IMG/VR virus record: IMGVR_UViG_3300015615_000629
Coordinates: 304,711 to 368,710 of that record
From: a virus
Lineage: Duplodnaviria; Heunggongvirae; Uroviricota; Caudoviricetes
DNA: 64,000 bases
Direction: 5' to 3' (one strand)
Within the stretch, counting starts at the first letter, position 1; every line of letters begins with the position of its first letter. Positions 597 through 58,105 of the stretch are shown one piece after another. The translations under genes were made by a program, and so were the position numbers. Below the pieces are notes generated by a model. The model did no database searches and had not been told where the DNA came from. It saw only the letters and a list, made by a program, of their open reading frames with translations.

Positions 597-1058
597 TTAT
601 AATGTAATTTCTTGTAGAGTGTTTCTATAATTAGCTTTCTCTCCTAAGTTAAAATAAGGAGGTGCTGAGAATTTGCTTTCCCACAGATAGTTTATTATGT
701 AGTCTACTGCGTCGGAGGGAATCTGTTTTACTATTAAGTTACGTTTATAATCTTCTCCAAGACAAATACCACCGCCGCAACACAACCATCCTGGTTCATC
801 ATAAAAATATTCATTATTTTTATCGAACAATAAGACGCTTATGTTTAGGGCGTAAAAAGTATTTTTGTTGCATTGTCTTAATAATATCTGATAAAAACAC
901 CCTGGAATATCCCGATAAAATGCCTCTGTATAGAATTCGCAAGATAAGGCAAAGACGGTTCGTTTTCTTGGTGGCTCATGGACATGAGCCCAAAAATATT
1001 CTTCCGGTCTACCGCTAGCGGAATAATATTTTATCGTTCGTTTTTGGATTATATTCAT
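597..1058 (-). CDS. Prok-E2_D-like paralogue 1
   Basis: PPRKRTV...GGICLG...YLWESKF, the shared family motif. Confidence 0.5.
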   Translation of the reverse strand: MNIIQKRTIKYYSASGRPEEYFWAHVHEPPRKRTVFALSCEFYTEAFYRDIPGCFYQILLRQCNKNTFYALNISVLLFDKNNEYFYDEPGWLCCGGGICLGEDYKRNLIVKQIPSDAVDYIINYLWESKFSAPPYFNLGEKANYRNTLQEITL

Positions 1059-1596
1059 CTGTTTTACTTTTTGAATTGGGCCAAGATTTTTCTACAATGT
1101 TTAGCGATTAGTTCTATATCTGGTTCACCTGCTTGGTGCCAAAATATTCTGCCTTCGATAGTACAAAATTCTGATATACTATATTCAATTAGTGGGGATT
1201 GGCACACGAAAATAAGGTCGCTTGATACGATGGGTTGAAGAACATTACGCTCGCGTTTAATAGGCTTTGTAAGTTTCTTTGCTATTTTATAGAAAGCCTT
1301 TTCCTTTTTAAGGTCTGTTAAATATGCTCTTAACTGAAATTCTCTATTGCTCCAACTGGAATAATTCGAACAAATAGTTCCTCTAACCAACCACGAAGGG
1401 TCTTTCAACAAATATGGTTGATAACCTTGAGCAGCGGCATTGTGTGTCGCCGCCAATAGGTCTTTTCTATATTTTGAAAAACTTTTCAATATTGGATCGT
1501 CGGTTTTCTTATCGACAATACTATTTTCGAGTTGTTCTAGGATGAATTCTGGATCGCTAGCCCAAGATGCAAGTCTGGACATCGACCATTGTTCGG

Positions 1597-1905
1597 CTAT
1601 TTTGTCGAATTCTTTGTCCATGTGTCTAGCTTATCCTTTAAGCGGGCAAAGGCTTCATCGGCAGGATATAAGTCACCACGATTTGCCTGATCGATACCGG
1701 CTTGCACATCGTCGCGTAAATTATTTTTGCCATACAGATTTATTGCCAACAAACAAGCACAGACCGCCATGCAATAGATGCCGACGGAGACAGGAATTTC
1801 AAAATAGGGAATTTCATACATACCCATTACAACTGTTCCTAAAAGGCCGATTAGGAACAGTTGTAAACCTAAGAATCCAAGAAAGGAGGCTCGTTTGAGT
1901 TTCAT
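1597..1905 (-). CDS. Two-TM membrane protein with ParD-antitoxin-like C-terminal tail
   Basis: Two hydrophobic segments, then LRDDVQAGIDQANRGDLYPADEAFARLK. Confidence 0.35.
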   Translation of the reverse strand: MKLKRASFLGFLGLQLFLIGLLGTVVMGMYEIPYFEIPVSVGIYCMAVCACLLAINLYGKNNLRDDVQAGIDQANRGDLYPADEAFARLKDKLDTWTKNSTK

Positions 1906-1919
1906 GTTTTTACCCCATT

Positions 1920-2378
1920 TTACTTCAATTCATTAGCAATGGCTTCCAATTCCATCTTAGCCCGCAATTCAGGGCTGATGATTGCATTGAGCCTTGTTTC
2001 GAGTGTGGCAAGCTTCTTTTTCTTGGCAGTGATTTGGATTCTGGTAATCCTTACCTTAATATCTTCAAGCCAATCACCTACGGTAAAGCCTTGCCAAGTG
2101 AATTCGGGCGGTTCTGTGACGCCAAGAGCCTTGGCGGCTGTATCGTAGGTCTTTTCCTTTTCAGCAAGGAATGCCGCAATACAGATTAATTTGCGGACAT
2201 CGCTTTCGACCTGCAAATTAGTTGCATCGGAGCCGCGTTCTGTATAAGAGAAAGAACAGTTGGTAGCAAAAACAGAACGTTCCGCCTTTGAAATTTCTTT
2301 CTTCTGGCGGGCAACTTCTGCAATTAGTTGCAGAGTTGTTTCGTCGGTTGTACCTTTTGCAGCCTTTACTTTGGCCAT
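1920..2378 (-). CDS. Hypothetical phage protein, coiled-coil
   Basis: Track ORF; likely start MAKVK at 2378, directly after the upstream gene. Confidence 0.55.
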   Translation of the reverse strand: MAKVKAAKGTTDETTLQLIAEVARQKKEISKAERSVFATNCSFSYTERGSDATNLQVESDVRKLICIAAFLAEKEKTYDTAAKALGVTEPPEFTWQGFTVGDWLEDIKVRITRIQITAKKKKLATLETRLNAIISPELRAKMELEAIANELK

Positions 2379-2379
2379 T

Positions 2380-8700: not shown

Positions 8701-9150
8701 TCATGGTAGAGTAACGTTCATAGGAACGGCAATCCCATTAGAGACTGGAATTTCTTCCATAATTTCCAGCCTTTTATTTCTGAATATATCTTGGATTACG
8801 GCTGCGTGTCCACTGCTTATAACATAAGATGGACTTATATCGAAACTGGAAAACCAAAAATCATCTACAATGTGATGAAAACCAACTCTTCGACTACAAA
8901 TACAGTAATCTCTTCCTATATGTGGCAGCCCAGAATGAAAAACTTGTATTTCTTTGCCTTGCGGTTTGTTTTTCAATAAACCGAAGTAAACCACTCCAAA
9001 TTCATTGCCCCAAAACATGCTCCACGGAACTTCAATAGAAACCTTTTTGATAAGGTTGTAGCTACCAAAAGAACTAGAACCTATAACTGTTAAGGTTCTA
9101 GTTCTTGGCGGACAAACCAGATAATCTTCCACAATATAAGGAAAATTCAT
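8701..9150 (-). CDS. Prok-E2_D-like paralogue 2
   Basis: PPRTRTL...VPWSMF...GLPHIGRDYCIC...FWFSSF. Confidence 0.55.
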   Translation of the reverse strand: MNFPYIVEDYLVCPPRTRTLTVIGSSSFGSYNLIKKVSIEVPWSMFWGNEFGVVYFGLLKNKPQGKEIQVFHSGLPHIGRDYCICSRRVGFHHIVDDFWFSSFDISPSYVISSGHAAVIQDIFRNKRLEIMEEIPVSNGIAVPMNVTLP

Positions 9151-11353: not shown

Positions 11354-11938
11354 TTAACTCCAAATAGATTCCTTCGGCTTTCTATCCCGAACTGCCTTTA
11401 GTAGTTCGAAAACCTTATCTTTATTAGTTCCATCGTATTTAATCACGTTTTTATGAGAAAATTCGAGATTATTTGGGTGAGTTGGCATAATCCCTAGTCC
11501 TCTGGGACGGTTTTTAAGCCAACTGGACATGTATTTGGGCCAATCATCAACTAAAACCCGTCCATAAGTAAGGGATTTATCATCCTCTGTCACAGTAACT
11601 TTAATGCCGCTTCCTAAGTGCCTACGGCACCACCGTATCTTTTGCTCCCATGCTGAATGGGTGTTTTCCGGCCCTTTTGTCAGGATATGTATCTCATATT
11701 CAAGTTCTTGAAGCATTTTAAAAACATCAAAGCCTGATTGAATTGGTTCTAGATCAAACCACCAATCCTTGCTATTTTTAATCAACCGCATCCTGTTTCT
11801 CAATGGTTTTGATAAACCATTGAGGCTTGTTACAATTGGTTCTTCGGGAGAACGTAATTGTTCCAACCATCGAAGCATAGAACCTTCGTAATCAGCCAAG
11901 GTGCCGTCCATGTCTACTAATGCTACTATTCTGGCCAT
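11354..11938 (-). CDS. HAD-family 5'(3')-deoxyribonucleotidase
   Basis: DMDGTLADY, ILTK and VLVDDW motifs. Confidence 0.8.
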   Translation of the reverse strand: MARIVALVDMDGTLADYEGSMLRWLEQLRSPEEPIVTSLNGLSKPLRNRMRLIKNSKDWWFDLEPIQSGFDVFKMLQELEYEIHILTKGPENTHSAWEQKIRWCRRHLGSGIKVTVTEDDKSLTYGRVLVDDWPKYMSSWLKNRPRGLGIMPTHPNNLEFSHKNVIKYDGTNKDKVFELLKAVRDRKPKESIWS

Positions 11939-12408
11939 GTTGGTTCGTCTACTTCTTTGTAATGACGGAGGGAGATTCTACTTAACTGTTCACGTTTTGC
12001 AGCCTCGATAGAGGCACTTCGACGTAAATAAGTAAAAGAAGTCTGCCAAAAAAGGTTTATCGTATTTAGCACTAATTTTGAAGCCGAAGGTTGTTCTTTA
12101 ATCGCCGTTCCCAGACAGATGGGCTGATATTTGACATGAGAAATATTTTTGGGAAGATAACAAACGCCATCTTTGACAACGGACAACCATATTCCACTAA
12201 AAATGAAAACACGACTTACATGATTTTGAATAAACCCTATTTCAAATATCAAATCTGGAAAATTAACAAATCTGGGACGATGGGTCTCTTGGTCTTGGGC
12301 AAATCCTCGAATCATAATTGTCCTGTTGTGAGCCGGAACTAAAACTTGAGCATAGTTGGCTTTATATTGGATATGGGCGGCGTCGAATTCGAAGTATTTT
12401 ATCTGCAT
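11926..12408 (-). CDS. Prok-E2_D-like paralogue 3
   Basis: PAHNRTI...NFPDLIF...ICLG...FWQTSF; start moved to MQIKYF. Confidence 0.55.
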   Translation of the reverse strand: MQIKYFEFDAAHIQYKANYAQVLVPAHNRTIMIRGFAQDQETHRPRFVNFPDLIFEIGFIQNHVSRVFIFSGIWLSVVKDGVCYLPKNISHVKYQPICLGTAIKEQPSASKLVLNTINLFWQTSFTYLRRSASIEAAKREQLSRISLRHYKEVDEPTWPE

Positions 12409-13353
12409 TCTTGAGCCTCTGTAACAACTATAGCGATCAAATCTCGCCAAAATCTACCAGGATTCTTTTTAACGTGGAAAACGATATCGAACTTTTCATC
12501 TGTTAAACGATTTGTTTCGATTTTATCGAAATAGTCGCCAAATCTATAGTGCTCTTCAGTTTGATGTTCTACGCCGTTAGGAAATCGTCTTATTACGTTC
12601 GTATAGACACGGTCTAGGCCGATTTGTTTAGCAGTTTCTCGTTCTACTTCTAAAGACTTTTCTTTAGTATCGGACTGAATTAAAAACGATTTTATCATAA
12701 TAGTTTACCAATAATTCTTCCAAATAATCCCCCGAACACAATGCCGCTAGAGATAGTTAAGACAACACGCCAAACGGGCAAACCACTCTTGTAGGAAAAA
12801 TTTGATACGATTAAATAAACGAATGCGATAAAAACGAAAATTGTAAGAAATACCATTTCTTTTCTTTCTCGTGTAGAGTCCTGTTACCCCTTCTGGTGTT
12901 ATCTCACCTACGATTTGGTCTCGCTCCCCAATCGTGCAGCAGGAGTTTTCAAATAAAGCGTATGTATATGGGTCTTTAATGGGCTTGCTAAGGTCTATCT
13001 GACCTTTGGCATTCTTTTCCCATTTGCGACCATGCCTTACTATACCATATCTCGTTCTATCGTAAAACCTGCCGTATTTGCGGCCATACACCCTAACAAT
13101 TTGTCCGCATCTGTATTCTTTGCCTTTTCTGTCGTTCATTCAAACATCTCGTCGTTCCATTTTCGGTTTATTTCAACGGCTTTAAAACGATAATAATCTC
13201 CATGAAACTCCCATTTGTTTTCAGATATCTTTTCGAAGGTAGGGACTTCATTCTGAATAAATTCTTCGGCTAATTGTTGTGTGGAAAATGCCCCAACAAT
13301 ATATTCTTTAAGGTCTTTTCCGCCAAACATTACGAAAAAGAGTTGCATTTAAG

Positions 13354-13423: not shown

Positions 13424-15743
13424 ATGTATTATACTCAATACTTGGATTACAATAGATACATTTACAAGCAGTGTTTTCCGTACAATCCACCCATTGACCT
13501 GTATTTATCAAATAGCCGCTCATAATTGCATTATTGTTGGACTCAAGACGACAATTACTATCTTGTAAATGCTTTTCACACAAGCACGAGGAAGGGATTG
13601 ATATTCCTTCGCTGCTTGTTTTACAAAATAGTTTGATTGGCAAGTTTTTCTGCCCACTCTGCTGCTTCTTTTGGAGTAGTTGCCGTTTCGCAACCAATTT
13701 CTTTACCATCTTTAAACATTCTAACATAGAATTGGCCTTTTGGGTCGTTTTCTGGAAACCAATCTACGCAAATAGTCTTATTCCCGATATTCACCACCAC
13801 AATATCTTGGTTTAATTCATACGGTTGCATTTCTTCGTATAAATTGCTGGAAATTTCAGCACCCGCTGGCAAGGAAATGGGAATCGGTAACAAAAAGTAT
13901 TCCTTATCGACTTCTATTGCTTGCGTGCCATCCTCAAATGTCAGATCGGCACAACTGGGATTAATAGCATTTTGTTTGACATCTGCTTCGACAATTTCGC
14001 CACATTTGTAAACCACTTCGGGTAAAACAACGTCTTTGGTTGGATAATCACCTAATTTTAGGCAATAAAATCCTTTATAATGACCGCCTAATTTTCGAAA
14101 TTTAATTTTTTCCATATCGTCTTTCTGCAAGTTCTACACCCATTCGGAAGGCTTGTTCTGGCGTAGGCGGCCCTACCTCATCAATTTTACCAAAATAAGG
14201 GTGCTCGCAGTCGAACAATCGTTCTACGCGGCTTCTGGTTTCGTTGCTGTAATAACCTGCCCAATATCCCAAATTGGTTTTTTCTATTCCCTCAGCTTCT
14301 TCACGAGTAAGCCCGTGTTCCATCGAATGCCAGACGAGAACTTCAAAATATTGCTTAGCCTCGTCTTCTGAAACAATTTTCATTGCTGGACTATATTTGT
14401 CGTCCAAAGTAATGTTATGCGGTAACACTTTATTTGTCATTGTGCCAACTCAATCCTTGCCCGTTAAGCGTATTGTATATGTCTTTGGCTAATATTTCAA
14501 ATGCGGCTTTCTTGGCTTCTTTTGTTTCTAAGTCCCTGCCCATATTAGTGCAACAATGCGTATGAGACGAACCCTCGTTTTCGTCCTCAACAATAACAGT
14601 AACGCAGAAATCGTCCCAATCGCGTTCGAATTTAATTGAACCACCATTATTACATATTTCTGCAATTTTAGCCACAATGGCAACGCAATGTTTTTCAGTC
14701 ATTTTCATGGGCTCGTCTAAACATGTTCAAATCCAGTAGATGACCGGCTTCCTCTGCTGTAGCCCTGAACATTTTTCTAAAGGTGTTCTTTCCTAGTATC
14801 GTCTCTATTTGCTGAAAGTGCTTAAAGGCTGCTTCGTTGTATTGCTTAACGCATTCTTCCGAAGTAATTTCTTTTGTATCGAATCTATACAATAGGCTTT
14901 GAAAAACCTTTAACATTTCATCTCTTATGGAGACAATTTCACGAATTTTTTCAAGGTCTACATCTTCTACATCTCCGATTTCAATATTGTTTTCGTTATA
15001 CTCAACATCTTCTCGAATTCTCCAAGCAAACATATCGTCTACTTTCATGTCTTTGATTACGGATGGCGAAAAGAAAATAGGAACTTCCAAAACGGAGCTA
15101 AGACATTCAACTCCTTCTTCTTTATAAGCGGTTAATTTACATCCGATCCATTGACCGTTCATTCTGAAAGCCTTAATTTGTTCCAATGTTCTGTAAAATC
15201 GCCTTCAATCCATTCAGACCCTTCAATAAATTGATCTCTGGTTTTGAGCCAGTCGATTGTTTCTGCCTTACCGCGTTCCCAATCGAAGTAATATCGTGGC
15301 CACAAATCTTGAAAGTCGATATCTAAAGCAAGAGTACCAGCGGCCTCAAGGTGGAAAAGATAGTTTCCACGGTCGCAATATTGCGGACGGGTAGATGTCC
15401 AAACAATGCAATTCTTACCAATGATAAAGTAAGAATCTTTTTTGATCCAGTTTATTCCCATTTGTCCATCAACTCGTTAGCATAAGTTTGCCCCTTAGTT
15501 TGTTTTATAATTTCCTTTGCTTCTCTCCATATCCTGCTTCTATTTCTTAGTTTGTTTTTCACGGGCAACGTTATTGTTAGAAACCCCAAAAGAACGTCAA
15601 TTTGCAATCTATTTGGGTCTACGTTCTCTAAAATCGAGTCTACTTCGCTAAACTCGCCGGCCAACATGAGATCGTCGATATGATTGAAAACAGCGTCTAG
15701 ACCTTCGTCGGCATTTTCTATAGCGTAAAGGGATTCTAGCCAA

Positions 15744-37288: not shown

Positions 37289-37342
37289 TTAAGTGATTCA
37301 GCCGACCCAGGTTTTATCCTGAGCCGTGTCTTGTTGACTGGT

Positions 37343-37432: not shown

Positions 37433-37465
37433 TTTAGTTTCTTCTACTTTCGTTCTAACTGTAAG

Positions 37466-37537
37466 TGGCGGGAGAAGGAATCGCACCTCCGACCTTGAGT
37501 TTATGAGACTCACGAGCTACTACTGCTCCACCCCGCT
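37466..37537 (-). tRNA. Initiator-like tRNA-Met(CAU)
   Basis: A1:C72 mismatch, fMet-type GCGGGG-TG-GAGC...GCTC scaffold, loop CT-CAT-AA; anticodon stem lacks the three G-C pairs. Confidence 0.85.
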
Positions 37538-42085: not shown

Positions 42086-42379
42086 TTTCTGCTTTAATGG
42101 GTTCACGTTCGATGATCGTGAAACTTTCGCCATGTATTCCGTGGTGCATAAGGATTCTTATTCTTTCATTGCCTCTTTCGATTGTGAAATCAACCCAATC
42201 ATGTTGATCCCATCCTGGGTTTATATTGCCCCAATTTATCCGAGCCCCTTCAGGAAGGTAATGGAATTGCGGAGGCTTCGGTTCTGTTTTTGGTGTAGTC
42301 TTGTAAAACAAGGTGATTGGCAAAAAGGCTACAACAATCGCCACACAACACAGAAAAAACAAGCCGCCTCTGTTCATTT

Positions 42380-44464: not shown

Positions 44465-46000
44465 TTACCAATCTCCGGAGGCACCGCCGCCACTAAAGCC
44501 AGAATCGGAAGAACTTGACCCGCTATCAAAACTAGAGGACGAAGAACCACTATCAAAACTAGAAGAACTAGAGTCCCAACTAGATGATACTCCCCCGCCG
44601 CTAAAGCCAGAAGAGCTACTTGAACTTGTATAATTGGACGAGTAATCCGTTTGTGGAGGAGGTGTTGGTGCGGGTTCCGGACGTTCTGCCTTCTCGCACA
44701 GTTTTTCTATGAGAAGTAGATTCAAATACCAATCCAATGGATCGGAGCCTCTATTGCCGATATCACGAGTCGCTTGCTCATAATATTTGCGATTAGATTT
44801 TGATACTTTCTTTTCAATTTTTCTCAATCTTTCATTGATCTTCTGTTCAAGTTCCGGCCCGAGCCGCTTAGCCTCTTCCGTTTTCTGTTCTCGTTCTTCA
44901 ATGCGAGTTAAAAGGCTTCTGGCGTTAGTCTTATTTGTTTCGGCTAGTTTTAAAGTATCTCGCCAATCGTGGGGTTCTGAGATACTGGAAAGTTTTGCAT
45001 GGTCGTCGCAAATCTTGTCCAAATGAGCCGATTCCGCTGCTTTCAAATCTTTGATTTTGATTGTGGCGATATATTCCTTTGTCTTGTCTAATACCGCCGC
45101 CAAACCAGACTTAGCATTTCTTATTGCGGAAAGTGTTTTCTTATATAGACCGGCTTCGTCAACCACTTGCTCAATAGTTTCGCAGTCGGCATCAAAATTA
45201 GAATCAAATATTGAAGGGACACGAGGGAATGCTCCTGGCCTGTTAAAAACACCAGGGGCTTCGGCATCTAGTTCTGAAAAGTCAATCTGGGCTTGTACGT
45301 TTTGGGTGCCATATCGTTCTATCAAATCCTCGCATCGTCGCCTTCTCGATTGTCGTCCCAAATACCACTTAATAAATGCCACCAAAGCGAAGCCTCCAAC
45401 TACTCCGAAAAAGAACAATAAAATTGTTATAACAACTCCTGTGTTGTCCGACTTTTCAGCTTTGGCCTCGCTTGTTCTTTCTGAAGGCCGTGCAAAGGGT
45501 TCTTGTCGGGATTCTTGAAAAACCGGTTTTTCTTGTCGTGGAGGAGGCGTAACAGGCGTAAGGGCCAGAACAACCTGTTGTGTTCCGACCATAATTCCTG
45601 ATTGAAAATCTTTGCGTTTAAAGGCTGGAATTACATCATTTTGCATAATTCTATTGGCTGCTGCTTCGGTAAAGATTGAGGTAACAATACCATCACTGAT
45701 TTCAAATCTGGCTTTCCGTTCTTTTCGGGAAACCAAAAACAGAACGGCACCTTTCTTCTCTCTGTCAAGGTGCATTTTGTTGGCTAATTCACGGGTATAA
45801 TGTTCGATAGAATCCCCGCCCATGTCGTTAATTGTAACAACCGCAATCCTGTAGGGCGTGGTGTTGTTAAAATCGGCTAATTGCCGTTCTAGGGCGGAAG
45901 CCATGTTGGGAGACAAGAAATGGGCTTCATCGGTAACATGGGTAGCTGGGGCTTCGACTTGGCAAAGCACTACGGTTGCCAAAAGAATAGCATGGATCAT
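44465..46000 (-). CDS. TPM-domain (YgcG-like) membrane protein with long helical insert
   Basis: Signal peptide; VTDEAHFLS...AVVTI...GAVLFLVS..ERKARFE...IPAFK; TM segment; Gly/Ser tail ending SGGGASGDW. Confidence 0.88.
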   Translation of the reverse strand: MIHAILLATVVLCQVEAPATHVTDEAHFLSPNMASALERQLADFNNTTPYRIAVVTINDMGGDSIEHYTRELANKMHLDREKKGAVLFLVSRKERKARFEISDGIVTSIFTEAAANRIMQNDVIPAFKRKDFQSGIMVGTQQVVLALTPVTPPPRQEKPVFQESRQEPFARPSERTSEAKAEKSDNTGVVITILLFFFGVVGGFALVAFIKWYLGRQSRRRRCEDLIERYGTQNVQAQIDFSELDAEAPGVFNRPGAFPRVPSIFDSNFDADCETIEQVVDEAGLYKKTLSAIRNAKSGLAAVLDKTKEYIATIKIKDLKAAESAHLDKICDDHAKLSSISEPHDWRDTLKLAETNKTNARSLLTRIEEREQKTEEAKRLGPELEQKINERLRKIEKKVSKSNRKYYEQATRDIGNRGSDPLDWYLNLLLIEKLCEKAERPEPAPTPPPQTDYSSNYTSSSSSSGFSGGGVSSSWDSSSSSFDSGSSSSSFDSGSSSSDSGFSGGGASGDW

Positions 46001-46031
46001 TCGTTTTCCTTGTGAGTAAAGAACTTCCGTT

Positions 46032-46060
46032 ATAGTAGCGTAAGCAGCCAGAAATGTCAA
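46032..46060 (-). promoter_or_regulatory. Sigma70-like promoter
   Basis: TTGACA-N17-TACTAT. Confidence 0.65.
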
Positions 46061-46079: not shown

Positions 46080-46784
46080 ATGCGAACGTTTCAAGAATGG
46101 CTATTACGAGAATCGATGGATGTTAGGGTTGTTGATGCACCTTACCAACACAAACAAGAAGACCTCCTAGATTTGTCTCATGTATTATTTCATAAGGTCT
46201 TTGACAAGGCTTGGGAGCGTTGGACTCCCGAACAACAGAAATATTGGCGTGCTGGTTTTGGCAATTTGGAAACTTTAAGCCCAGATGGCAATGATCATTT
46301 TAAAGAAACTGGCACTTTGAATCTTTATATGCGTCCAATTCATCCCGAACTTCGTCCCAAGGTTCTGGAAGGAATAAAGTATTTTCTGAAGGATTTGGGT
46401 GCTGAATTCGGCCCTTTTAGAGAAGAAAAAGGGACTGACGGAGACGTTCGAGTGGTTAGAATCCCGATTCTTAAGATGCCTGCTACGCAACAACAACCAC
46501 CGAGTTTAAATTTAAGTAATGCCAACGCCTACGATATCTTTTCTGGTTTATTAAACTACAAGTCCGACGATCACTATTATAAAATTCCCGTAAGGGATTT
46601 GTTAATGAAAATAGACATGCTTTCCCAGCATCAAACACAGTCAGCCGAACGTCCGACTTCTCAAGATGGCAATTTTATAGATATGGGTTTGTCCCAACAA
46701 CAAATTGATGTTAGATTGGGTAAAATAAGAGAAATTGCCAAATGGGCTATGGACAACCATTACGATTACATTAGCGTGTCCTAA
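46080..46784 (+). CDS. Candidate capsid-internal protein
   Basis: MRTFQEWLLRE N-terminus; CATAAATA 4 nt upstream. Confidence 0.6.
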   Translation: MRTFQEWLLRESMDVRVVDAPYQHKQEDLLDLSHVLFHKVFDKAWERWTPEQQKYWRAGFGNLETLSPDGNDHFKETGTLNLYMRPIHPELRPKVLEGIKYFLKDLGAEFGPFREEKGTDGDVRVVRIPILKMPATQQQPPSLNLSNANAYDIFSGLLNYKSDDHYYKIPVRDLLMKIDMLSQHQTQSAERPTSQDGNFIDMGLSQQQIDVRLGKIREIAKWAMDNHYDYISVS

Positions 46785-47284
46785 TCGAGAATAGTTATGT
46801 TAATATTGTCTGCTGTGATTTTCTTGTTAAAAACACATCTCGTTTCGAAAATTAGTCCGTTCTTTAAATTTTCTATAAACTTTTCTGTATCGGATTGAGA
46901 AAAATAGGAATAGGAAAAGACCGATGTAAAGAAATAATTTAAAACTTTAATATATTGTTTCTCGTGTATGTGCTTAGTAATGATATGTGCGTCTTGACCA
47001 AAACAGATATATCCACCTCCGGAGATGTTTTCGATAAGAGGGACATGGATATCTTCGGTACAAACGTACACATAAGGTTTATACAACCGGTTTTGACTAT
47101 TCAAAATATAGAAATTTAGTGTTGGGAATTCAACAAAATATCTATTTTCGGTGTAGTTGTGACATCTGTAAACAATAGTCCGCTTGTGTTGTTCGACTTT
47201 GATTTTGGTTACAGAGACATCTTGCCATATATTTAAATTGCTACCGAGATGTATGATAAATTGTACATCTTCAGATGTGTGCAT
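46781..47284 (-). CDS. Prok-E2_D-like paralogue 11
   Basis: HKRTI...EFPTLNF...PLIENISGGGYICFG...FFTSVFS. Confidence 0.65.
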   Translation of the reverse strand: MHTSEDVQFIIHLGSNLNIWQDVSVTKIKVEQHKRTIVYRCHNYTENRYFVEFPTLNFYILNSQNRLYKPYVYVCTEDIHVPLIENISGGGYICFGQDAHIITKHIHEKQYIKVLNYFFTSVFSYSYFSQSDTEKFIENLKNGLIFETRCVFNKKITADNINITILD

Positions 47285-48498: not shown

Positions 48499-49320
48499 AT
48501 GTATTTACCTGAATTAAACAAAAATCTACTTACGAGCCTTTTAGAAGAAAACCTAACACTAACTCAAATCGGTAAGAAATATAATTGCAGCCGTCAATTT
48601 GTGGCCCGAAGACTTCGAAGTTTTGGAATAGAATACGAACACCGGCCCGTCAAGTATCCAGTTGATGTTGACTTTTTTAACAAATGGTCGCATAAAATGG
48701 CCTATATTTTAGGTTTTATTATGGCAGATGGCTGTGTTAATTTTCAAAAACGCTACAACAGATACAGATTAAAAATTGAATTACAATTACGTGATATTGA
48801 GATTTTACAATTTATTCGCGACCAAATAAGCCCAACCAGACCCATTCAAGATAATATAATTAGAGTCAATAAAAGTGGCTCGATTTCGTATGTGGCATGT
48901 TTATCTTTATCGATAAAAAAAGAAATGTTTGATCGTCTTGGAACATTAGGAGTAGTACCCAGAAAATCAGGAAAAGAACTTATTCCATTGGAAACCCCAA
49001 AAGAGTTTATCTGGACGTTTATTTTAGGCTACTTCGATGGTGATGGCTGTGTTCATAAAAGACAATCGAAAGATGCCGGTGGCTATGATTGGAGTATTTG
49101 CTCATCTTCTAGAAAGATAATCAAGCAAATTAAAAAGAAGATGCCGGTCGGTAAAATCGAAAAGAATAAAAAAGGCATGTGGAGAATTGGCGTGCGGAAC
49201 AAACCGCAAGTAATACAGGTTAGGGAAAAACTATATGAAAACGCTCCATTTTATCTAAAAAGAAAGCATAAACTTTTACAAGAAGTAAGATTAGGTATTC
49301 AGAGACGCCAACATATATAG
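48499..49320 (+). CDS. Free-standing double-motif LAGLIDADG homing endonuclease with N-terminal HTH
   Basis: MAYILGFIMADG and FILGYFDGDG. Confidence 0.9.
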   Translation: MYLPELNKNLLTSLLEENLTLTQIGKKYNCSRQFVARRLRSFGIEYEHRPVKYPVDVDFFNKWSHKMAYILGFIMADGCVNFQKRYNRYRLKIELQLRDIEILQFIRDQISPTRPIQDNIIRVNKSGSISYVACLSLSIKKEMFDRLGTLGVVPRKSGKELIPLETPKEFIWTFILGYFDGDGCVHKRQSKDAGGYDWSICSSSRKIIKQIKKKMPVGKIEKNKKGMWRIGVRNKPQVIQVREKLYENAPFYLKRKHKLLQEVRLGIQRRQHI

Positions 49321-49324
49321 TTTG

Positions 49325-49738
49325 ATGAACTTTAAAGAATTCTTACTCAAAGAAATCGACGGCCCAGCCGGAATCGCCGAACCAGCCGCTATGCCAGGAG
49401 GCGGTCCTCCAATGGGAGGAGGTATGGGTGGCCCTCCATTAGGTGGAGGTCCGCCAATGGGAGGAGGTATGGGTGGCATGGACCCAATGATGGGCGGCAT
49501 GGGTGGTGGAATGGGAGGAATGGGTGGCGGAATGCCACAAGCAAGTCAACCCACAATTAATGTAAAGTTTTTAAATGTCTGGGACGTTTTGGAAAGAATT
49601 GTCGATGGCAAACCGTTTAAACATTATCAAAAAGAAGAAAAGCCATCTGGACAGCCTGCACCTCAAATGTTACAACAGGCCCAACCGCCTAATGTAGCAA
49701 ATAATGCCCCACAACAACCGAATCTTAATATTCAGTGA
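49325..49738 (+). CDS. Gly/Met/Pro-rich protein with capsid-targeting-like N-terminus
   Basis: MNFKEFLLKE; 24-nt direct repeat at 49409-49432 and 49454-49477; TATATA 5 nt upstream. Confidence 0.65.
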   Translation: MNFKEFLLKEIDGPAGIAEPAAMPGGGPPMGGGMGGPPLGGGPPMGGGMGGMDPMMGGMGGGMGGMGGGMPQASQPTINVKFLNVWDVLERIVDGKPFKHYQKEEKPSGQPAPQMLQQAQPPNVANNAPQQPNLNIQ

Positions 49739-50792
49739 TATTCACGTTCACCCACATAAAATAAGACAGTTTAAGAACCACGAACGTCTTGAAGACTGCC
49801 TTAAATGCTTATCTTGGGTGCTGGAAACCGCTAAAGACCACGATATCAAAGATATTGTCTTTGCGGGCGATCTTTTCCATGATAGGGAAAAGATTGACAT
49901 TCTCACCTATCATAGAACTTATGAGATTTTAAAACAGCATGTAAGTGAAGACAGACGCTTACATCTTCTGCTTGGCAACCACGATATTTGGTATCTTAAG
50001 AAATGCGACGTAAGCAGCGTCGTACCACTAAGAGAAATGCCAGGATTAAACGTAATATCCACCCCTTCTACAGTGGATATCGCTGGTCAACCTATCAGCT
50101 TCCTTCCCTACACTCATGATCCAATTCAAGACCTAAAATTAATCAAAAATGACCATTCATTTAAGGTTCTTTTCGGTCATTTGGCTATAGATGGAGCAGT
50201 CCTGAATTCTTCAGGAACCCAAGCGGAAGTCTCCTTAGAACACGATGGAGACATGATTAAAGTGGATAAATCCATCTTTAAAGGATGGGATCAAGTGTTT
50301 TTGGGACATTATCATGTTCCTCAGAAGTTATCCAATAAAGTTGAATATATTGGTTCCCCACTTCAGTTAGACTTCTCAGATGCTTTTCAAGAGAAGCACA
50401 TCATTATTTTCGACTTAAAAACTAAAGAAAAACAGTATATCGTTAATGATTTCAGTCCTAAACATCTAGTAATTCCCCAAAAAGATGTAGAAAAGCATAA
50501 TTTACAAAATAATTTTGTCAAAATCATAGTCGAAGATATCTCAGCCTCAGATATTGTCGATATGAGAACCGAATTACTAAAAGAACATACGTTTGGTTCA
50601 TTAGAGATAAAACCAGTTTTACAGAAAAATGATAAGAATTTGGTTTTAGATGCCAAAGCTATTCTCTTAGCAGAAGATAAGATGCTTGAGACTTATTTAA
50701 ATGAAATTGAAAAAGAAGATGGATTGAATGGGTTGGACAAGGAAAAACTACTAGAAATAGGAAAATCTATCTGTGCTGGAAGAGATAAATGA
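49704..50792 (+). CDS. Mre11/SbcD/gp47-like nuclease
   Basis: SDIH, GDLFH, GNHD and GHYH metallophosphoesterase motifs; upstream of the Rad50 gene. Confidence 0.92.
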   Translation: MPHNNRILIFSDIHVHPHKIRQFKNHERLEDCLKCLSWVLETAKDHDIKDIVFAGDLFHDREKIDILTYHRTYEILKQHVSEDRRLHLLLGNHDIWYLKKCDVSSVVPLREMPGLNVISTPSTVDIAGQPISFLPYTHDPIQDLKLIKNDHSFKVLFGHLAIDGAVLNSSGTQAEVSLEHDGDMIKVDKSIFKGWDQVFLGHYHVPQKLSNKVEYIGSPLQLDFSDAFQEKHIIIFDLKTKEKQYIVNDFSPKHLVIPQKDVEKHNLQNNFVKIIVEDISASDIVDMRTELLKEHTFGSLEIKPVLQKNDKNLVLDAKAILLAEDKMLETYLNEIEKEDGLNGLDKEKLLEIGKSICAGRDK

Positions 50793-52759
50793 AAAATCTA
50801 AAATTTAAATATCTAGCTGCAAAGAACATCTTCTGTTACGGAAACCAAGGTTTAGAACTTAACTTTGAAACCCTTGGAAATATTGTTCTAATTAGTGGAA
50901 GAAATGGTTCTGGTAAGTCATCTATTCCCAATATTTTAGTTTATGCATTATTTGGACGCCCAATTAAGCACCCAAAGAAGCTGGCTCATGCCGATATAAT
51001 TAACAAAAAAACCAAAAAGAATCTTTATGCCGAAGTTCGTTGGGACGATTACAGAGTTGTCAGAACCAGAAAGCCAGAGAGTTTAAGAATCTGGTATAGC
51101 CCAGAAAGCATTTGGAATGATGAAACTGAAATAAGCAAGTCTGGAATTCCGGCTGTTCAAAAGCAAATAGAAGAAATAATTGGATTAAATTATGAAACAT
51201 TTATCAATCTGGTAGTTTTTACCGATTCCAATACAGATTGCTTTCTAGAATGCGATACGCCAACTAAGAGGCAAATTGTGGAGAATTTGCTTGATCTAAG
51301 CAAGTACGTCGAAAGACTCCAAACCGCTAAAGAATCTCGTAAGAAACTCTTAGATGGAATCAAGTCTCTTACCGATTCTTATCAAAGACTGCTGATCGAA
51401 TCTTCTTCTGCTAAGAATCGTGTAACAAAATATCTTCAAGAAGAAGAAACCTGGAAACAACAGAAAAAAGCTGAAATTGCTTCTTTGTTAAGCAGTTTGC
51501 AAGCTAATCAAAATGAATTAAAAAACAGTTCGGTAGGAACTGAGTTGGCGGCTTACCAGGAAGCCCAGGACAAGATTACCGAATTGAACAATTCAATACC
51601 TGATAAGGAGAAGACTTATGAGCAGTTAAGTGAAGAAATCAAAAAATATGAAAATAAGAAACGTTCTGATTTGGTGGAAGTTTCAAATATAGAAATTTCA
51701 AAAAACAAGATAGATTCTGAGATAAGAGATTTTGAGAAGAAGATAAAAGCAAATCAGGATAAGATTTATACAATCAAGAAAACAGCCACTTTAAGTGGAA
51801 CGGTTTGTGAGCGTTGTTTTGGCATTGTTCACGAAGACAATTGTGATTCTTACGAAAAGCAGTTGTTGGTTGAAAACGACGGACATTTAATAGAAATCTC
51901 CAAGAGAAAGCCTGAGTTGGAAGAAATTACGGCTTCTTTGACCAAAAAGAATGCTTTTTTGAAGAAATTGAATGAAGTATTAGGGGCTAAGGAATCGGAA
52001 CGCAACAAGGTTTCTAGCGAAATTACGAGTATTAGGAGCAAAATTACGGAGTTGTCTCGAATTAAGCGTCCGGAAGTAGGAACAAGAGAGCAATTATTAG
52101 AACAAAAGATTGAGAGTTTGAAACAGCAAGCCAGGACAAAAAAGGCGGAATTAGATGGACCGAGTCCATTTGTTGACATTATTAAGGGAGCAGAAGCGGA
52201 GGTTCTTGTTAAGGAGCAAGAATGTATAGAAGGGAAGAAAGAGATTGATGTTTTGGAGAAAGATATTCCTTATTACGACTTCTGGACTAAGGGGTTTGGT
52301 GACGGCGGGATTAGAAAGCTAATAATTGATGGTATTATTCCTGCTTTGAACGAAAGGATTAATTACTGGATACAGTTTCTTATGGATGGGAGTTTTCAGA
52401 TGTCGTTTGATAATGAGTTTGTAGAGACAATTCATAGGGTTCCGAACGATTCTGACCCATATGTTTATCATGGAATGGCAGGAGGGGAGAAAAGAAGGTT
52501 AAATCTGACAATATCTCCATCTTTTGCTCATATTATGATGCTTAGTAGTGGGATTTCTCCGTCTGTTTTATTTCTGGATGAAGTTGCTAGTAATGTCGAA
52601 CAAGATTCAATGGGCAACATATTTGAGATGATAGTGCAGTTATCTAGGGATAAGCAGGTATTTGTGACGACACACGATCCTGGATTAAGGAAATATTTAG
52701 AAAGTTATCAAAGAATTGACCTTGAAAATATAGACGGATTTACTACCTTTAGTAACTAA
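50789..52759 (+). CDS. Rad50/SbcC/gp46-like ATPase
   Basis: GRNGSGKS, coiled coils with a CERC zinc hook, MAGGEK signature, LFLDE, TTH. Confidence 0.93.
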   Translation: MKNLKFKYLAAKNIFCYGNQGLELNFETLGNIVLISGRNGSGKSSIPNILVYALFGRPIKHPKKLAHADIINKKTKKNLYAEVRWDDYRVVRTRKPESLRIWYSPESIWNDETEISKSGIPAVQKQIEEIIGLNYETFINLVVFTDSNTDCFLECDTPTKRQIVENLLDLSKYVERLQTAKESRKKLLDGIKSLTDSYQRLLIESSSAKNRVTKYLQEEETWKQQKKAEIASLLSSLQANQNELKNSSVGTELAAYQEAQDKITELNNSIPDKEKTYEQLSEEIKKYENKKRSDLVEVSNIEISKNKIDSEIRDFEKKIKANQDKIYTIKKTATLSGTVCERCFGIVHEDNCDSYEKQLLVENDGHLIEISKRKPELEEITASLTKKNAFLKKLNEVLGAKESERNKVSSEITSIRSKITELSRIKRPEVGTREQLLEQKIESLKQQARTKKAELDGPSPFVDIIKGAEAEVLVKEQECIEGKKEIDVLEKDIPYYDFWTKGFGDGGIRKLIIDGIIPALNERINYWIQFLMDGSFQMSFDNEFVETIHRVPNDSDPYVYHGMAGGEKRRLNLTISPSFAHIMMLSSGISPSVLFLDEVASNVEQDSMGNIFEMIVQLSRDKQVFVTTHDPGLRKYLESYQRIDLENIDGFTTFSN

Positions 52760-53433: not shown

Positions 53434-55875
53434 ATGACATATTCTTATAATGAAGCTTTTCAGGCTTCGGTTGATTATTTTTCTGGCGATGAGTTGGCGG
53501 CGAAGGTTTTTGTAGACAAGTATGCGTTAAGGAATGAGGAACAAGAGTTTCTTGAATTAACTCCTACTGATATGCATTGGCGAATTGCCAAGGAACTTCA
53601 TAGAATTGAAGAAAAGAAGTTCAAAAAACCTTTATCTTTAGATGAAATCTTCTCCTATTTGGATAGATTTAAGCGATTGGTCCCTCAAGGTGGGCCAATG
53701 TCTGGCATTGGTAATCCGTACCAATGCATGACCTTGTCGAATTGCTATGTAATTGGTACGGATCCTGCTTGTGATAGTTATGGTGGAATTTGCCGTGTTG
53801 ATGAGCAATTGGTTCAAATTAGTAAAAGACGCGGCGGTGTTGGTTTAGATATTTCTCATATTCGTCCAGCAGGTTCTGCGACGAAGAATGCGGCTAGAAC
53901 AAGTACGGGTATTGTTCCTTTTATGGAACGATATTCGAATTCCATAAGAGAAGTAGGGCAAAGTGGTCGCAGGGGTGCTCTTCTCATCTCGTTAAGCGTA
54001 CATCATCCCGAAGTTATTGATTTCGCTACAGTTAAGCATGATTTGACGAAGGTAACTGGAGCAAATATATCAATTAAATTAACTGATGAATTCCTAAATG
54101 CAGTTGAAAATGATGAAGAATATGAACAACGCTGGCCAGTGGATTCATCGGAGCCCAAAATCAGCAAGAAGGTAAGAGCAAGAGATGTTTGGGACAAGAT
54201 AATAGCATCAGCAAGAAATATGGCCGAACCCGGCCTTCTTTTTTGGGATAATATCATCCGAGAAAGCCCTGCTGATTCTTATGCTAAGTTTGGCTTTAGA
54301 ACCATCAGTACCAATCCATGCTCGGAATTAACACTCTCAATTTTGGACTCCTGTCGCTTATTTTTGGCTAATTTGTTTGGTTATGTCATCCATCCTTTTA
54401 CAAAAGATGCTTATTTCGATTTTGATCTTTTCTACAAAGAAGCCCAAATTCTTCAACGTTTTATGGATGACATGATTGATTTGGAGATTGAATGCATTGA
54501 TAAAATCATTAAGAAGATTAAAACAGACCCAGAACCAGATGATGTTAAGAGAAGTGAACTAGATTTATGGAAACAAATTAGAAAGGCTTGTACAGACGGC
54601 CGCCGAACAGGATCGGGCATTACCGCTCTTGCGGATACTATGGCTGCATGTGGTATTAAATACGGCTCAGATGAGAGTATTGAATTCACTGGAAAGGTAT
54701 ACAAAACGCTTAAACTAGGCTGTTATCGTTCTAGTGTCGATATGGCTAAGGAATTAGGAGCGTTTCCTGTTTGGGATTACGAATTGGAAAAAGATTGTGC
54801 CTTCTTGAAAAGGATTGAAGAAGAAGACCCACAACTATACAAAGACATGAAAAAGTATGGGCGTAGAAATATTGCCCTTCTAACCACGCCACCCGCTGGC
54901 AGTGTGAGCATTGAAACTCAAACATCTTCCGGTATTGAACCTGTATTTATGTTGTCTTATACTCGCCGTAAGAAAGGTAATCCTAATGACAAGAATGTCA
55001 GAGTGGACTTTGTTGACCAAAACGGCGATTGCTGGCAGGAATTTGAAGTTTATCATCCAAAGTTAAAAATGTGGATGGAAATCACTGGCAAGAAAGACCT
55101 AGAAAAGTCTCCATATTATGGCTGCTGTGCGGAAGAAATAAATTGGGTGCAACGTGTTAAATTACAAGCAGCTGCTCAAAAACACGTAGATCACAGTATT
55201 AGTTCAACAATAAATCTGCCAGAAGATGTTACCACAGAACAAGTTGCAGAAATTTATACAGCGGCTTGGAAAAGCGGTTGTAAGGGAATTACTGTATATC
55301 GTAAAAATTGTCGTACTGGTGTTTTAGTTGATAAGAATTCCTTAAATAAACGGGGTGAAAAGATACAGAAGACTACTGCCCCTAGTCGTCCCAAATTGTT
55401 GCCCGCAGATGTGCATCATATCAAGGTAAAGGGCGAAGAATATTTCGTATTGGTTGGAATGTTGAATCACGAACCTTATGAAATATTTTCTGGCAAGAAT
55501 GGTTTTATTGGCAAGAATGTTACAGGTGGAACGCTTTTAAAGGTAAAACGTGGTCATTACCGTCTTGAGGCAGAAGACGATAATGTTATAATGGACGATA
55601 TCTCTAATTATTGCACTGACGAAGAAGAGGCGTTGACTAGATTGGCTTCTATTTCATTACGACATGGTGCTGATGTTAACTTTATTGTGCATCAATTGGA
55701 AAAGGTAAAAGGGGACATGTATGGTTTTGCCAAGAGCATGGTAAGGGTGCTCAAGAAGTACATTAAGGATGGCGAAAAGGTTGCAGGAGAGAAGTGCGGT
55801 AGTTGCTCTGCTGAGAGTTTGCAACGTCGTGAGGGGTGCGTTATTTGTATGAATTGTGGTTGGTCTAAATGTTAG
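53434..55875 (+). CDS. nrdJ: Class II (adenosylcobalamin-dependent) ribonucleotide reductase
   Basis: LSNCY, TNPCSE, PAGSVS and KGITVYR motifs; C-terminal Cys pairs; no ATP cone and no adjacent beta subunit. Confidence 0.92.
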   Translation: MTYSYNEAFQASVDYFSGDELAAKVFVDKYALRNEEQEFLELTPTDMHWRIAKELHRIEEKKFKKPLSLDEIFSYLDRFKRLVPQGGPMSGIGNPYQCMTLSNCYVIGTDPACDSYGGICRVDEQLVQISKRRGGVGLDISHIRPAGSATKNAARTSTGIVPFMERYSNSIREVGQSGRRGALLISLSVHHPEVIDFATVKHDLTKVTGANISIKLTDEFLNAVENDEEYEQRWPVDSSEPKISKKVRARDVWDKIIASARNMAEPGLLFWDNIIRESPADSYAKFGFRTISTNPCSELTLSILDSCRLFLANLFGYVIHPFTKDAYFDFDLFYKEAQILQRFMDDMIDLEIECIDKIIKKIKTDPEPDDVKRSELDLWKQIRKACTDGRRTGSGITALADTMAACGIKYGSDESIEFTGKVYKTLKLGCYRSSVDMAKELGAFPVWDYELEKDCAFLKRIEEEDPQLYKDMKKYGRRNIALLTTPPAGSVSIETQTSSGIEPVFMLSYTRRKKGNPNDKNVRVDFVDQNGDCWQEFEVYHPKLKMWMEITGKKDLEKSPYYGCCAEEINWVQRVKLQAAAQKHVDHSISSTINLPEDVTTEQVAEIYTAAWKSGCKGITVYRKNCRTGVLVDKNSLNKRGEKIQKTTAPSRPKLLPADVHHIKVKGEEYFVLVGMLNHEPYEIFSGKNGFIGKNVTGGTLLKVKRGHYRLEAEDDNVIMDDISNYCTDEEEALTRLASISLRHGADVNFIVHQLEKVKGDMYGFAKSMVRVLKKYIKDGEKVAGEKCGSCSAESLQRREGCVICMNCGWSKC

Positions 55876-56117
55876 TCCTCTACTTTTTTGAGTAAAGTAT
55901 AATAATTTGGTTTTTCTTTTAGATGAGCAATAGCAATCTTAAGGGTTTTGACTGGATCGGAATGTGTAACATCGGTTTCTTTGTCGTGTTTTCCATGCTC
56001 TAATTCTACCTTATAGCCCATTTGGAGTTGTTTAAGATCATATTTTGAAATATCAATATTTGCTTTTTTAGCTATTTGATGTATGTTGACTGACTCGATC
56101 CAAGTTTTGAATTCCAT
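55872..56117 (-). CDS. DUF5661-like protein with capsid-targeting-like N-terminus
   Basis: MEFKTWIES...QLQMGYKVELEH...KIAIAHLKE.PNYYT.L. Confidence 0.7.
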   Translation of the reverse strand: MEFKTWIESVNIHQIAKKANIDISKYDLKQLQMGYKVELEHGKHDKETDVTHSDPVKTLKIAIAHLKEKPNYYTLLKKVED

Positions 56118-56637
56118 AATAAGGTATATAGAATGAAATGGTATGTTATCGCAAGACAAGCAACTACTATCGATGGAGAAGATTATACTTACCCTCTTCT
56201 AATTTATTCTGAAAAAGAGCGGGCTCAGTTGGCTATGAAAGGGGCAAATACACCAAAAGATAAGGTGGTCTTAATGGAGGTTATGCCTGTTAAGCCTGCT
56301 GCGAAAAAAGTTACCTATCTTCCTGGCCAACTTGAATTTGACTGGACCATATGAAGAAAAATGACGACTTCTGCCCCATCTGTGGCGAATTTATTGAAGT
56401 AATTGCTCCTGCTTGGAACAACTATCCATATTTAGATGATAATAAAAGGTTAAAGGACGGCTCTAAAATATGCCATCCTTGTTACATAATTCCTCGAAAG
56501 TATGATGAAAAACTAGTTTTTTATGATAAGGTTGTTAGACTGGCTACGGTTCAAGAATTAGTTGAGGACGGCGTAGATAGTAAACGGGCTGACAAATGTT
56601 TGAAAGCCGTTAAAAAACTAATAAAGAAATGAGTTAA

Positions 56638-57003
56638 ATGTTATTTAAAGAGTTTGTCTTAAACGAGGATAAAGCCTATTTTGGGGAGAAGGTAGGTGAC
56701 ATATTGAATTCCTTACATGATCTTGTGGAAAATGGCAAGAACATGGGTGGAAGAAGTTTAATTAAAAGTTCTGAAGAAGTTGTTAATCAAATTCGTGGTA
56801 TTTTGCATTCCCACTGGGGAAAGGATGAGCAAAAACATTTGAAAAAGCTACAAAAAGTTGGTGTAGCAATTATGCGAGCGATTGAAGAAAAAGATGATTT
56901 AGCGGAGATTTTGCCTGGATGTGCCGAAGAAGTAGAACAGATTAGCCAGAAAGTAGGCACTCCAATGAATGATTTAGCTGCTCCGGAAAAAAAATCTGAA
57001 TAA
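56638..57003 (+). CDS. Hypothetical protein with capsid-targeting-like N-terminus
   Basis: MLFKEFVLNE. Confidence 0.55.
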   Translation: MLFKEFVLNEDKAYFGEKVGDILNSLHDLVENGKNMGGRSLIKSSEEVVNQIRGILHSHWGKDEQKHLKKLQKVGVAIMRAIEEKDDLAEILPGCAEEVEQISQKVGTPMNDLAAPEKKSE

Positions 57004-57015
57004 CTATTATAGATC

Positions 57016-57564
57016 ATGGACGATTTAGAAGTAGATGATTTATTTGAAGAACCACGTAAAAGAGGCTCTAAGGGCAAACCCAAAGGAAAACGTGGTGAAC
57101 TAGAAGTAGTAAATTTACTCAATTTAAGATTCGAAAATTATCTTAAAGAACGTCCAGATGATGGTAAATTCATGCGAACCATCGGCAGTGGCAATCGGTG
57201 GAGTCACGGGAGTCTATCTAAAGCAGCTAAAGATGTCTTTTCATCGGATATTGTTGCTCCCAAGGCTTTCGTTTTCAGTATTGAAGCTAAAACCGGATAC
57301 AACGACATTGATCTGAATACGGCATTCGATAAATGCAAGCCTTTGGATGATTTCCTAGAACAAGTGAAGGCAGATGCTGCCAGATGTGGTCGGCAGCCAA
57401 TGTTGTTGTGGAAGAAGGACAGAAAATGCCGTTTGGCATTCCTTCTAGAAGAGGATTTGCCACAACATGATTTGTTTAATGTTAAGATGTTTTATAGAGG
57501 CTGGGTAGCGGTGAATTTTGATAGATTATTGGATTTAGGAGATGAGTTCTTTTTCAATGAATAA
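57016..57564 (+). CDS. Holliday junction resolvase-like PD-(D/E)XK nuclease
   Basis: KGKRGELEV...R..GSG...SDI...IEAK...Q. Confidence 0.8.
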   Translation: MDDLEVDDLFEEPRKRGSKGKPKGKRGELEVVNLLNLRFENYLKERPDDGKFMRTIGSGNRWSHGSLSKAAKDVFSSDIVAPKAFVFSIEAKTGYNDIDLNTAFDKCKPLDDFLEQVKADAARCGRQPMLLWKKDRKCRLAFLLEEDLPQHDLFNVKMFYRGWVAVNFDRLLDLGDEFFFNE

Positions 57565-58105
57565 AATCTTCTACTTTAAGTGCTGAAACTTCTTCTTTAC
57601 TTATATCTTTGAATCTGTTTGTATGAATAGCTTGGCTGATTCTTTGATTACGGTCGTGATTGTAGTAGGTGTCAATAATAAGAGGGAGGAAATTTTTAAA
57701 ATCATATTTATCTTGTTGGGAAGTTATTTCCCAATTCTTTAAGTGGTAATTTTCACATGTATAAAACGGTAGTGTCCAATATTGGTCTATACAGGTGATA
57801 GACAAATTCAACATATTTTTATCATAACGGTAATTAGTGTGATCTAAGCAGAACGCTCCCCATTCATTTGTATTTGTCATTGGTGGATAAAATATTAGAT
57901 TATTCTTCCTGAAGATTAAATAAGTTTCAAAATGACCACAAAAGAATAATGGCTTATTCGAAATTGGGCCACTGCGTATCGGAAAAACAAACTCATGCTC
58001 TGGGAAATATAAATATCTTCGCTTGTTTCCAAAGAATAAATTTCTTCCAACTTCTGGAAAGCCAAAAGATAAAACTTTTCTTTTTCTATCTATCTTGATT
58101 TTCAT
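57554..58105 (-). CDS. Prok-E2_D-like paralogue 12
   Basis: PEVGRNL...YFPEHEF...PPMTNTNEWGAFCL...YWTLPF...WE. Confidence 0.6.
   Translation of the reverse strand: MKIKIDRKRKVLSFGFPEVGRNLFFGNKRRYLYFPEHEFVFPIRSGPISNKPLFFCGHFETYLIFRKNNLIFYPPMTNTNEWGAFCLDHTNYRYDKNMLNLSITCIDQYWTLPFYTCENYHLKNWEITSQQDKYDFKNFLPLIIDTYYNHDRNQRISQAIHTNRFKDISKEEVSALKVEDFIH

Follow-up and report, generated by a model that had tools for sequence, protein, structure and literature searches.

To date, work on the conjugation of ubiquitin-like proteins (Ubls) in bacteria has dealt with host defence and with operons encoding a single E2; how such systems select targets without E3 ligases is an open question. Several described systems provide a frame for comparison: Bil (BilABCD), type II CBASS (Cap2/Cap3), and Bub each combine an E1, an E2, a peptidase, and a Ubl with no separate E3; the PRTRC cassette is captured by four models (TIGR03735 for protein A, TIGR03736 for ThiF, TIGR03737 for protein B, and TIGR03738 for protein C); and the E2-like proteins of operon class 6d (Iyer, Burroughs, and Aravind 2006, PMC1779556) are described as lacking the classical His while having a strictly conserved one C-terminal to the Cys. 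Here, we analyze E2-like genes in a 64,000-nt stretch of a Caudoviricetes genome (hereafter the window), i.e., bases 304,711–368,710 of the virus record IMGVR_UViG_3300015615_000629, which is 572,167 bp long, carries direct terminal repeats, is rated complete, and has a GC content of 39.6%. An earlier sequence-only reading had singled out twelve genes of the window as paralogues of a Cys-bearing protein similar to Prok-E2_D, i.e., either decoys or hijackers of host conjugation or substrate-specific E2s of a phage-encoded system. We find that the twelve belong to a genome-wide family of 69 copies, which may well serve as the substrate-specific carriers of such a phage-encoded system.

The phage family shares with PF14460 (Prok-E2_D), the Pfam family of the class 6d E2-like protein, a single-domain E2-like build, a conserved Cys, and the lack of a His in the HPN position, and one of its operons resembles class 6d in encoding an N-terminally extended JAB, a ThiF-type E1, and a small Gly-ended protein together with a family member. 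It differs from class 6d in that a His lies ≤8 residues after the Cys in only 20 of the 69 copies, at scattered positions, and in being phage-encoded, with 69 copies in one genome versus one copy per operon. The combination of E1, E2, peptidase, and (probable) Ubl without a separate E3 likewise recalls Bil, CBASS, and Bub. These, however, are host-encoded defences with one E2 each, and Bub is reported to use oxyester intermediates, whereas the phage family keeps its Cys.

An E2-like family of 69 copies

As judged from profile comparisons, the twelve genes are very divergent copies of a bacterial-type E2-like family. All twelve open reading frames (ORFs) were recovered on the minus strand where they had been placed (149–192 amino acids, positions counted from the first base of the window):

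597–1058, minus strand: E2-like paralogue, 153 amino acids, divergent (GGGICLG, YLWESKF), with Cys and Arg in the invariant columns
8701–9150, minus strand: E2-like paralogue, 149 amino acids, the most divergent of the twelve (LPH...CICS, FWFSSF)
11926–12450, minus strand: E2-like paralogue, called from TTG, with a probable start at ATG 12408
15744–16322, minus strand: E2-like paralogue, 192 amino acids, matched by the family profile
39129–39617, minus strand: E2-like paralogue, 162 amino acids, matched by the profile
39607–40110, minus strand: E2-like paralogue, 167 amino acids, linked by BLASTP and profile
40613–41143, minus strand: E2-like paralogue of a tandem set of three, probable start at ATG 41128
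41103–41597, minus strand: E2-like paralogue of the tandem set, 164 amino acids, the copy chosen for modelling
41594–42133, minus strand: E2-like paralogue of the tandem set, probable start at ATG 42085
42380–42925, minus strand: E2-like paralogue, 181 amino acids (LPN...GLVCTG)
46781–47284, minus strand: E2-like paralogue, 167 amino acids, linked by BLASTP and profile
57554–58105, minus strand: E2-like paralogue, 183 amino acids, kin to the tandem set

Some of these copies are directly connected by BLASTP, e.g., the 39129 copy with its neighbour at 39607 (35% identity, E 1e-30) and the 57554 copy with the tandem set at 40613, 41103, and 41594 (28–32% identity, E 1e-13 to 1e-17). Overall, however, BLASTP links most of the twelve ORFs weakly or via intermediates, in chains, and membership was therefore settled by profiles. 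A hidden Markov model (HMM) of ten members retrieved the left-out copy at 597 with E 2.6e-9, and one built from the remaining 68 copies retrieved the 8701 copy with E 9.6e-7 over profile positions 23–123, the best non-family ORF in the same test reaching E 0.1; by BLASTP, the 8701 copy groups with genome copies at 173556 and 294532. These leave-one-out retrievals bear out the claim of a single family with an ordered motif, which can be written P..RT[ILV], hFP....F, LPN-x4-G-x-[VI]-C-[LM]-G, I..FW.[ST].F.

The count of twelve understates the family in the genome. An iterated profile search over all genome ORFs converged at 69 members, and scanning all stop-to-stop frames yielded the same 69, with no fragments or decayed pseudogene copies. 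These 69 intact copies (median length 166 amino acids) add up to 35.4 kb, or 6.2% of the genome, and form by far its largest family, the runner-up having six members; the largest array packs 22 copies into ~18 kb at genome 537–555 kb. The copies have diverged strongly, with a median identity of ~28% among detectable pairs and a mean column identity of ~12% across the family, yet the Cys previously seen in all twelve window genes is, together with an Arg, invariant in 69/69 copies. A Pro is kept in 66 and a Trp in 65 of the 69. No second conserved Cys or His was found in the 69 copies or in 98 outside relatives (see below), which leaves no residues to build a metal site.

Six copies do cluster at 39.1–42.9 kb, and a 39-nt repeat with a single mismatch (38/39) is present there as previously described:

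40667–40705, minus strand: patch copy 1, within the region coding for the C-terminal helix, holding the ATG of the next downstream ORF
41130–41168, minus strand: patch copy 2, whose end holds the probable ATG (41128) of the 40613 copy

The repeat had been taken as a sign of recent duplication. The patch itself is real, but the case for recency is weak, since even the two most similar copies of the genome, at 40613 and 41103, are no more than 52% identical at the protein level, and the two genes carrying the patch are only 63% identical overall at the DNA level. Both patches terminate at the ATG that opens the next downstream gene and include a short inverted repeat (AAGGA...TCCTT). They are more than a duplication trace: the patch may stem from gene conversion, or it may be an element conserved for translation initiation or coupling.

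Prok-E2_D homology and predicted fold

The assignment to Prok-E2_D holds via intermediate sequences, although no window member reaches the Pfam gathering cut-off of PF14460 (25 bits) itself: ten window members gave no PF14460 match at E ≤ 1 and nothing usable in Pfam or PHROGs scans. Among 68 own copies, PF14460 is the only recurring family, with matches to 13 of them at E ≤ 0.1 (best 8.2e-5), and a direct genome scan also turned up this family, below its cut-off. Searches of viral and metagenome contigs with single proteins and with one alignment returned no relatives. The 68-copy profile, run against a library of 1.8 billion proteins, retrieved 2,465 cluster representatives at E ≤ 0.001; among the best 150 of these, 54 are own or near-identical copies and the others are <50% identical. 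The outside relatives mentioned above are the 98 proteins among these best 150 that are not letter-identical to any own copy. PF14460 matches 53 of these 98 best outside relatives at E ≤ 0.01, the top score of 65.5 bits belonging to a protein (P0001) that the family profile retrieves at E 1.5e-32, and in two other phages, E2-family genes reach 35.7 and 26.3 bits. With the own copies below the cut-off and outside relatives above it, membership in PF14460 is established by transitive homology, not by direct score.

All 98 outside relatives keep both the Cys and the Arg, the Cys lying within LPN-x4-G-x-[VI]-C, and some relatives read LPNINSEGAICLG. From Asn to Cys, the family runs N, four residues, G, one residue, V/I, C, which is the spacing of the eukaryotic HPN...C motif. 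The family is thus like classical E2 domains (UQ_con) in active-site spacing (xPN, four residues, G, one residue, I/V, C, L), but Leu or Phe takes the place of the His in HPN, and no sequence-level match to UQ_con was obtained from family proteins.

We evaluated the fold with an AlphaFold2 (AF2) model of the copy at 41103–41597, built from a 68-sequence alignment (mean predicted local distance difference test score, pLDDT, 90.7; predicted template-modelling score, pTM, 0.86). The model runs through nine strands, the Cys loop (C90), a helix with the FW motif, and a C-terminal helix. When it was compared with 48,161 chains by VIA-align, about 35 of the best 50 matches were E2, UEV, or RWD domains, among them UbcH5c, UBE2E1, UbcH10, Ubc13, UBC12, BubCD-BubB, and Cap2, typically with Z 4.4–4.6, a root-mean-square deviation (rmsd) of 3.5, and ~104 residues aligned (UbcH5c: Z 4.6, rmsd 3.5, 104 residues). 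In the ESM Atlas, the model reaches a template-modelling (TM) score of 0.71 to a cluster in which 83% of the members carry PF14460, and Foldseek against BFVD returns only uncharacterised proteins of uncultured phages. The model is consistent with a UBC fold, which we consider likely for the family, and by these weak structural matches its general fold would be similar to that of UQ_con, with extra predicted strands instead of the N-terminal helix, nine strands preceding the Cys loop. A catalytic placement of the Cys is predicted from the motif.

Profile searches of PDB sequences yielded chance-level matches only, to a tRNA methyltransferase (E 1.5), UBE2W (E 1.1), and the TIR domain of TLR1 (E 0.04); we rejected the TIR resemblance because the confident model matches E2-type folds.

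Relatives of the family occur in other phages in far lower numbers. Two other virus records hold 2 and 3 family copies, and among 135 viral and metagenome loci gathered with a degenerate motif pattern, family ORFs were found in 25, of which 19 have one copy, five have two, and one has three. Phage cassettes elsewhere, with 2–4 E2-like paralogues, combine the same JAB, E1, and Ubl (AGEKG) module with same-family E2-like genes, but the 25 loci have ≤3 copies each (in up to 14 kb) compared to 69 in the 572-kb phage. A FastTree phylogeny of the 69 copies and 83 outside proteins was poorly supported, and for several of the own copies a single outside protein stands as partner in the tree, at 40–49% identity, which hints that individual paralogues may be old and long retained. 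Among GenBank phages, tblastn with an E2 copy found no match, while the E1 gave four weak matches (24–27% identity), including Vibrio phages D69, D181, and D148. Literature searches turned up no report of phages with expanded E2 sets.

Partner genes and genomic setting

The statement that no E1, JAB, or Ubl gene lies near the twelve is true for the window, the nearest ThiF and JAB genes standing 22–24 kb before its start. A scan of the whole genome, as the sequence-only reading had proposed, located ThiF and Prok-JAB at two places each, forming two ThiF and JAB pairs (clusters B and A), each beside a family member and one of them with a probable Ubl. None of the twelve window genes (0/12) has such neighbours, which lie beside the family member at genome 143079–143852 and, more loosely, that at 283536–284024. 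The HxH-x7-S-xx-D motif is intact in both JABs, and GxGxxG is kept in the E1s. Cluster B is a compact minus-strand operon in the order sigma factor, E2, JAB, E1, small protein (genome coordinates):

143842–144348, minus strand: sigma-70-family gene (regions 2 and 4), head of the operon
143079–143852, minus strand: E2-like family member, 257 amino acids
142104–143069, minus strand: JAB, matching PRTRC_A at E 2.8e-9 (positions 18–187 of 192)
141376–142068, minus strand: ThiF E1, matching PRTRC_ThiF at E 7.9e-12 (positions 13–242 of 245)
140960–141304, minus strand: 114-amino acid protein ending AGTKGA, directly after the E1, probable Ubl

While the JAB and E1 of cluster B align with PRTRC_A and PRTRC_ThiF, their scores (36.8 versus a curated cut-off of 101.8, and 45 versus 144.75) fall far short. 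For PRTRC_B (TIGR03737), no genome ORF scores higher than 12.7 bits (E 0.017), widely missing the equivalog cut-off of 131.45 bits, and PRTRC_C (TIGR03738) has no match in the genome. By these scores, the cluster B genes are relatives of the PRTRC cassette, not members.

Three observations lead us to read the 114-amino acid protein as a probable Ubl. Its sole metagenome homologue terminates exactly at the Gly; a 159-kb phage record encodes an 86-amino acid homologue (38% identity, E 2.7e-7) that ends AGEKG and lies directly after an E1, with a JAB upstream and three family E2 genes nearby; and the genome holds no other gene of its kind. The operon order E2, JAB, E1, Gly-ended small protein recurs in other phages. 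A phmmer search of the 114-amino acid protein against the PDB found no match, and the PRTRC_C, Prok_Ub, and ThiS profiles found nothing anywhere in the genome.

Cluster A (genome 279882–284024, i.e., 20.7–24.8 kb before the window start) is a looser assemblage with no recognisable Ubl (genome coordinates, strand where assigned):

279532–279885: zinc-ribbon protein
279882–280520: ThiF, best against ThiF/MoeB sulfur-carrier models, also TcdA
281708–282019, minus strand: 103-amino acid protein between the JAB and ThiF genes
282016–282501: small JAB
283204–283554: gene with a prepilin-type N-terminal methylation motif
283536–284024: E2-like family member

The 103-amino acid protein of cluster A has a relative with 44% identity (E 6e-22) in the window, a 108-amino acid helical-repeat protein (15452–15778, minus strand) whose gene overlaps the downstream end of the E2-like gene at 15744, and a third copy lies at genome 434992–435414. 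In the ESM Atlas, the 108-amino acid protein gave TPR-like helical matches only; it is a possible accessory factor of the system. Separately, two members of a small four-member family (genome 92966–93526, 100532–101146, 186310–186579, and 542051–542458) directly adjoin E2-like copies, at 93523 and 541520.

The remainder of the window has the gene content seen in huge phages, including 17 tRNA genes, a tyrosyl-tRNA synthetase, ribonucleotide reductase, and SbcCD-like genes. The match of a 604-amino acid ORF to terminase is weak, and GenBank phages gave no DNA match. The main features are (window coordinates, strand where assigned):

11354–11938, minus strand: NT5C-type 5'-nucleotidase, directly downstream of the E2-like gene at 11926
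18266–19495: tyrosyl-tRNA synthetase
27361–37537, minus strand: 17 tRNA genes in several blocks
44465–46060, minus strand: 531-amino acid protein with a TPM phosphatase domain
48499–49320, plus strand: LAGLIDADG homing endonuclease
49322–49738: 138-amino acid ORF between the LAGLIDADG and SbcD-like genes
49704–50792: SbcD-like phosphoesterase, downstream of the LAGLIDADG gene
50789–52759: SbcC/SMC-like ATPase, downstream of the SbcD-like gene
53434–55875: ribonucleotide reductase with a TSCPD domain, beyond the SbcC/SMC-like gene

Upstream of the E2-like genes of the window, a clear Shine-Dalgarno motif was seen in 0/12 cases within the 30 bases before the start, and the leaders are A-rich. 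This scarcity may reflect a host with little Shine-Dalgarno use.

Roles proposed for the E2-like copies

Given that the genome also encodes a ThiF-type E1, a JAB, and a probable Ubl, we favour the reading in which the 69 Prok-E2_D-type copies are substrate-specific carriers of a phage-encoded Ubl conjugation system, to which we assign a probability of about 0.55. The earlier proposal of phage E2s whose E1 lies outside the window fits the two ThiF and JAB pairs found beside family members. Specifically, the JAB peptidase, which may double as a deconjugating enzyme, would first trim the final Ala from the Ubl and so expose its C-terminal Gly; the phage E1, which would serve all 69 copies, would adenylate this Gly; and an E2 paralogue would take over the Ubl in thioester linkage to its invariant Cys, located in the loop LPN-x4-G-x-V-C-L-G. 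From there, the Ubl would be transferred directly, independently of an E3, each paralogue having a different target set by its divergent sheet surface and C-terminal tail, and the multiplied E2s would stand in for E3 ligases. The most economical reading is that only the E2 step is multiplied, with each copy possibly having its own target specificity, and the pattern suggests that the phage tags many different targets by multiplying E2s. The fullest version, in which the phage runs a Ubl "code" of its own with one E1, one Ubl, and 69 anciently diverged E2s, each tagging a different protein of host or phage with no E3, is put forward tentatively. For comparison, the human genome has ~40 E2-like genes, fewer than the 69 of this phage.

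Several results weigh against a phage-encoded conjugation system. At the level of the family, the best PF14460 score of any genome copy is 21.4 bits, below the cut-off, and only 51 of the 69 copies retain the Asn of LPN, nine having His instead. At the level of structure, Foldseek found no match to the model in the PDB, and every VIA-align Z against solved E2s is <5, i.e., weak. Finally, only two of the 69 copies adjoin an E1, and the 114-amino acid protein matches no Ubl profile and yields an unreliable AF2 model (pLDDT 41).

The alternative that the copies are decoys or traps for host E1/E2 defences (Bil, type II CBASS Cap2, 6A-MBL, or Bub), soaking up the host Ubl or E1 or diverting conjugation, with one copy per host variant, appears unlikely. 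Bacterial E1/E2 systems do act in anti-phage defence, most copies lie far from the phage E1, and the diversity of the family would suit such a role. However, E1, JAB, and probable Ubl are all encoded by the phage itself, in an operon whose E2 is another member of the family. Recent duplicates or decayed copies, as would be left behind by a rapid arms race, are absent as well. This part of the sequence-only reading gained nothing from the PADLOC defence-E2 models either: among six family members scanned, these gave one marginal match (E 0.0069), so that the copies do not closely mimic the E2s of defence systems.

A comparably low probability attaches to an E2-like fold that carries no Ubl, the copies being UEV/RWD-like binding modules or other Cys/Arg enzymes and the E1 and JAB genes serving another pathway, e.g., sulfur carriage or tRNA modification. 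Fold matches to non-catalytic UEV and RWD domains are in line with this, as are the affinity of the cluster A ThiF to sulfur-carrier models and TcdA and the many tRNA genes of the phage; the invariant Arg is also not known to have a counterpart in classical E2s. Yet all 69 own and 98 outside proteins have the Cys at the E2 motif position, whereas non-catalytic UEV and RWD domains are without that Cys, and the recurrence of the E2, JAB, E1, and Gly-ended protein order in other phages likewise argues against another pathway. Last, a family of repeated genes that are selfish or have no function, and have diverged by drift, would account for short, dispersed genes without direct Pfam matches, but it fits the data worst and is very improbable, since all copies are intact with no fragments and keep key residues invariant despite the low mean column identity, and since counterparts of individual copies occur in other metagenomes.

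If the 69 copies are carriers of a phage-encoded Ubl conjugation system, the virus carries the Ubl machinery itself, with only the E2 step multiplied. If the copies are active, each would be a ready-made specificity variant on a common chassis, and paralogue swaps would test target selection; phages would then tag proteins at large scale to remodel the infected cell. Should the proposal be true, the 69 phage E2s would be a natural answer to how prokaryotic Ubl systems without E3 ligases gain specificity.

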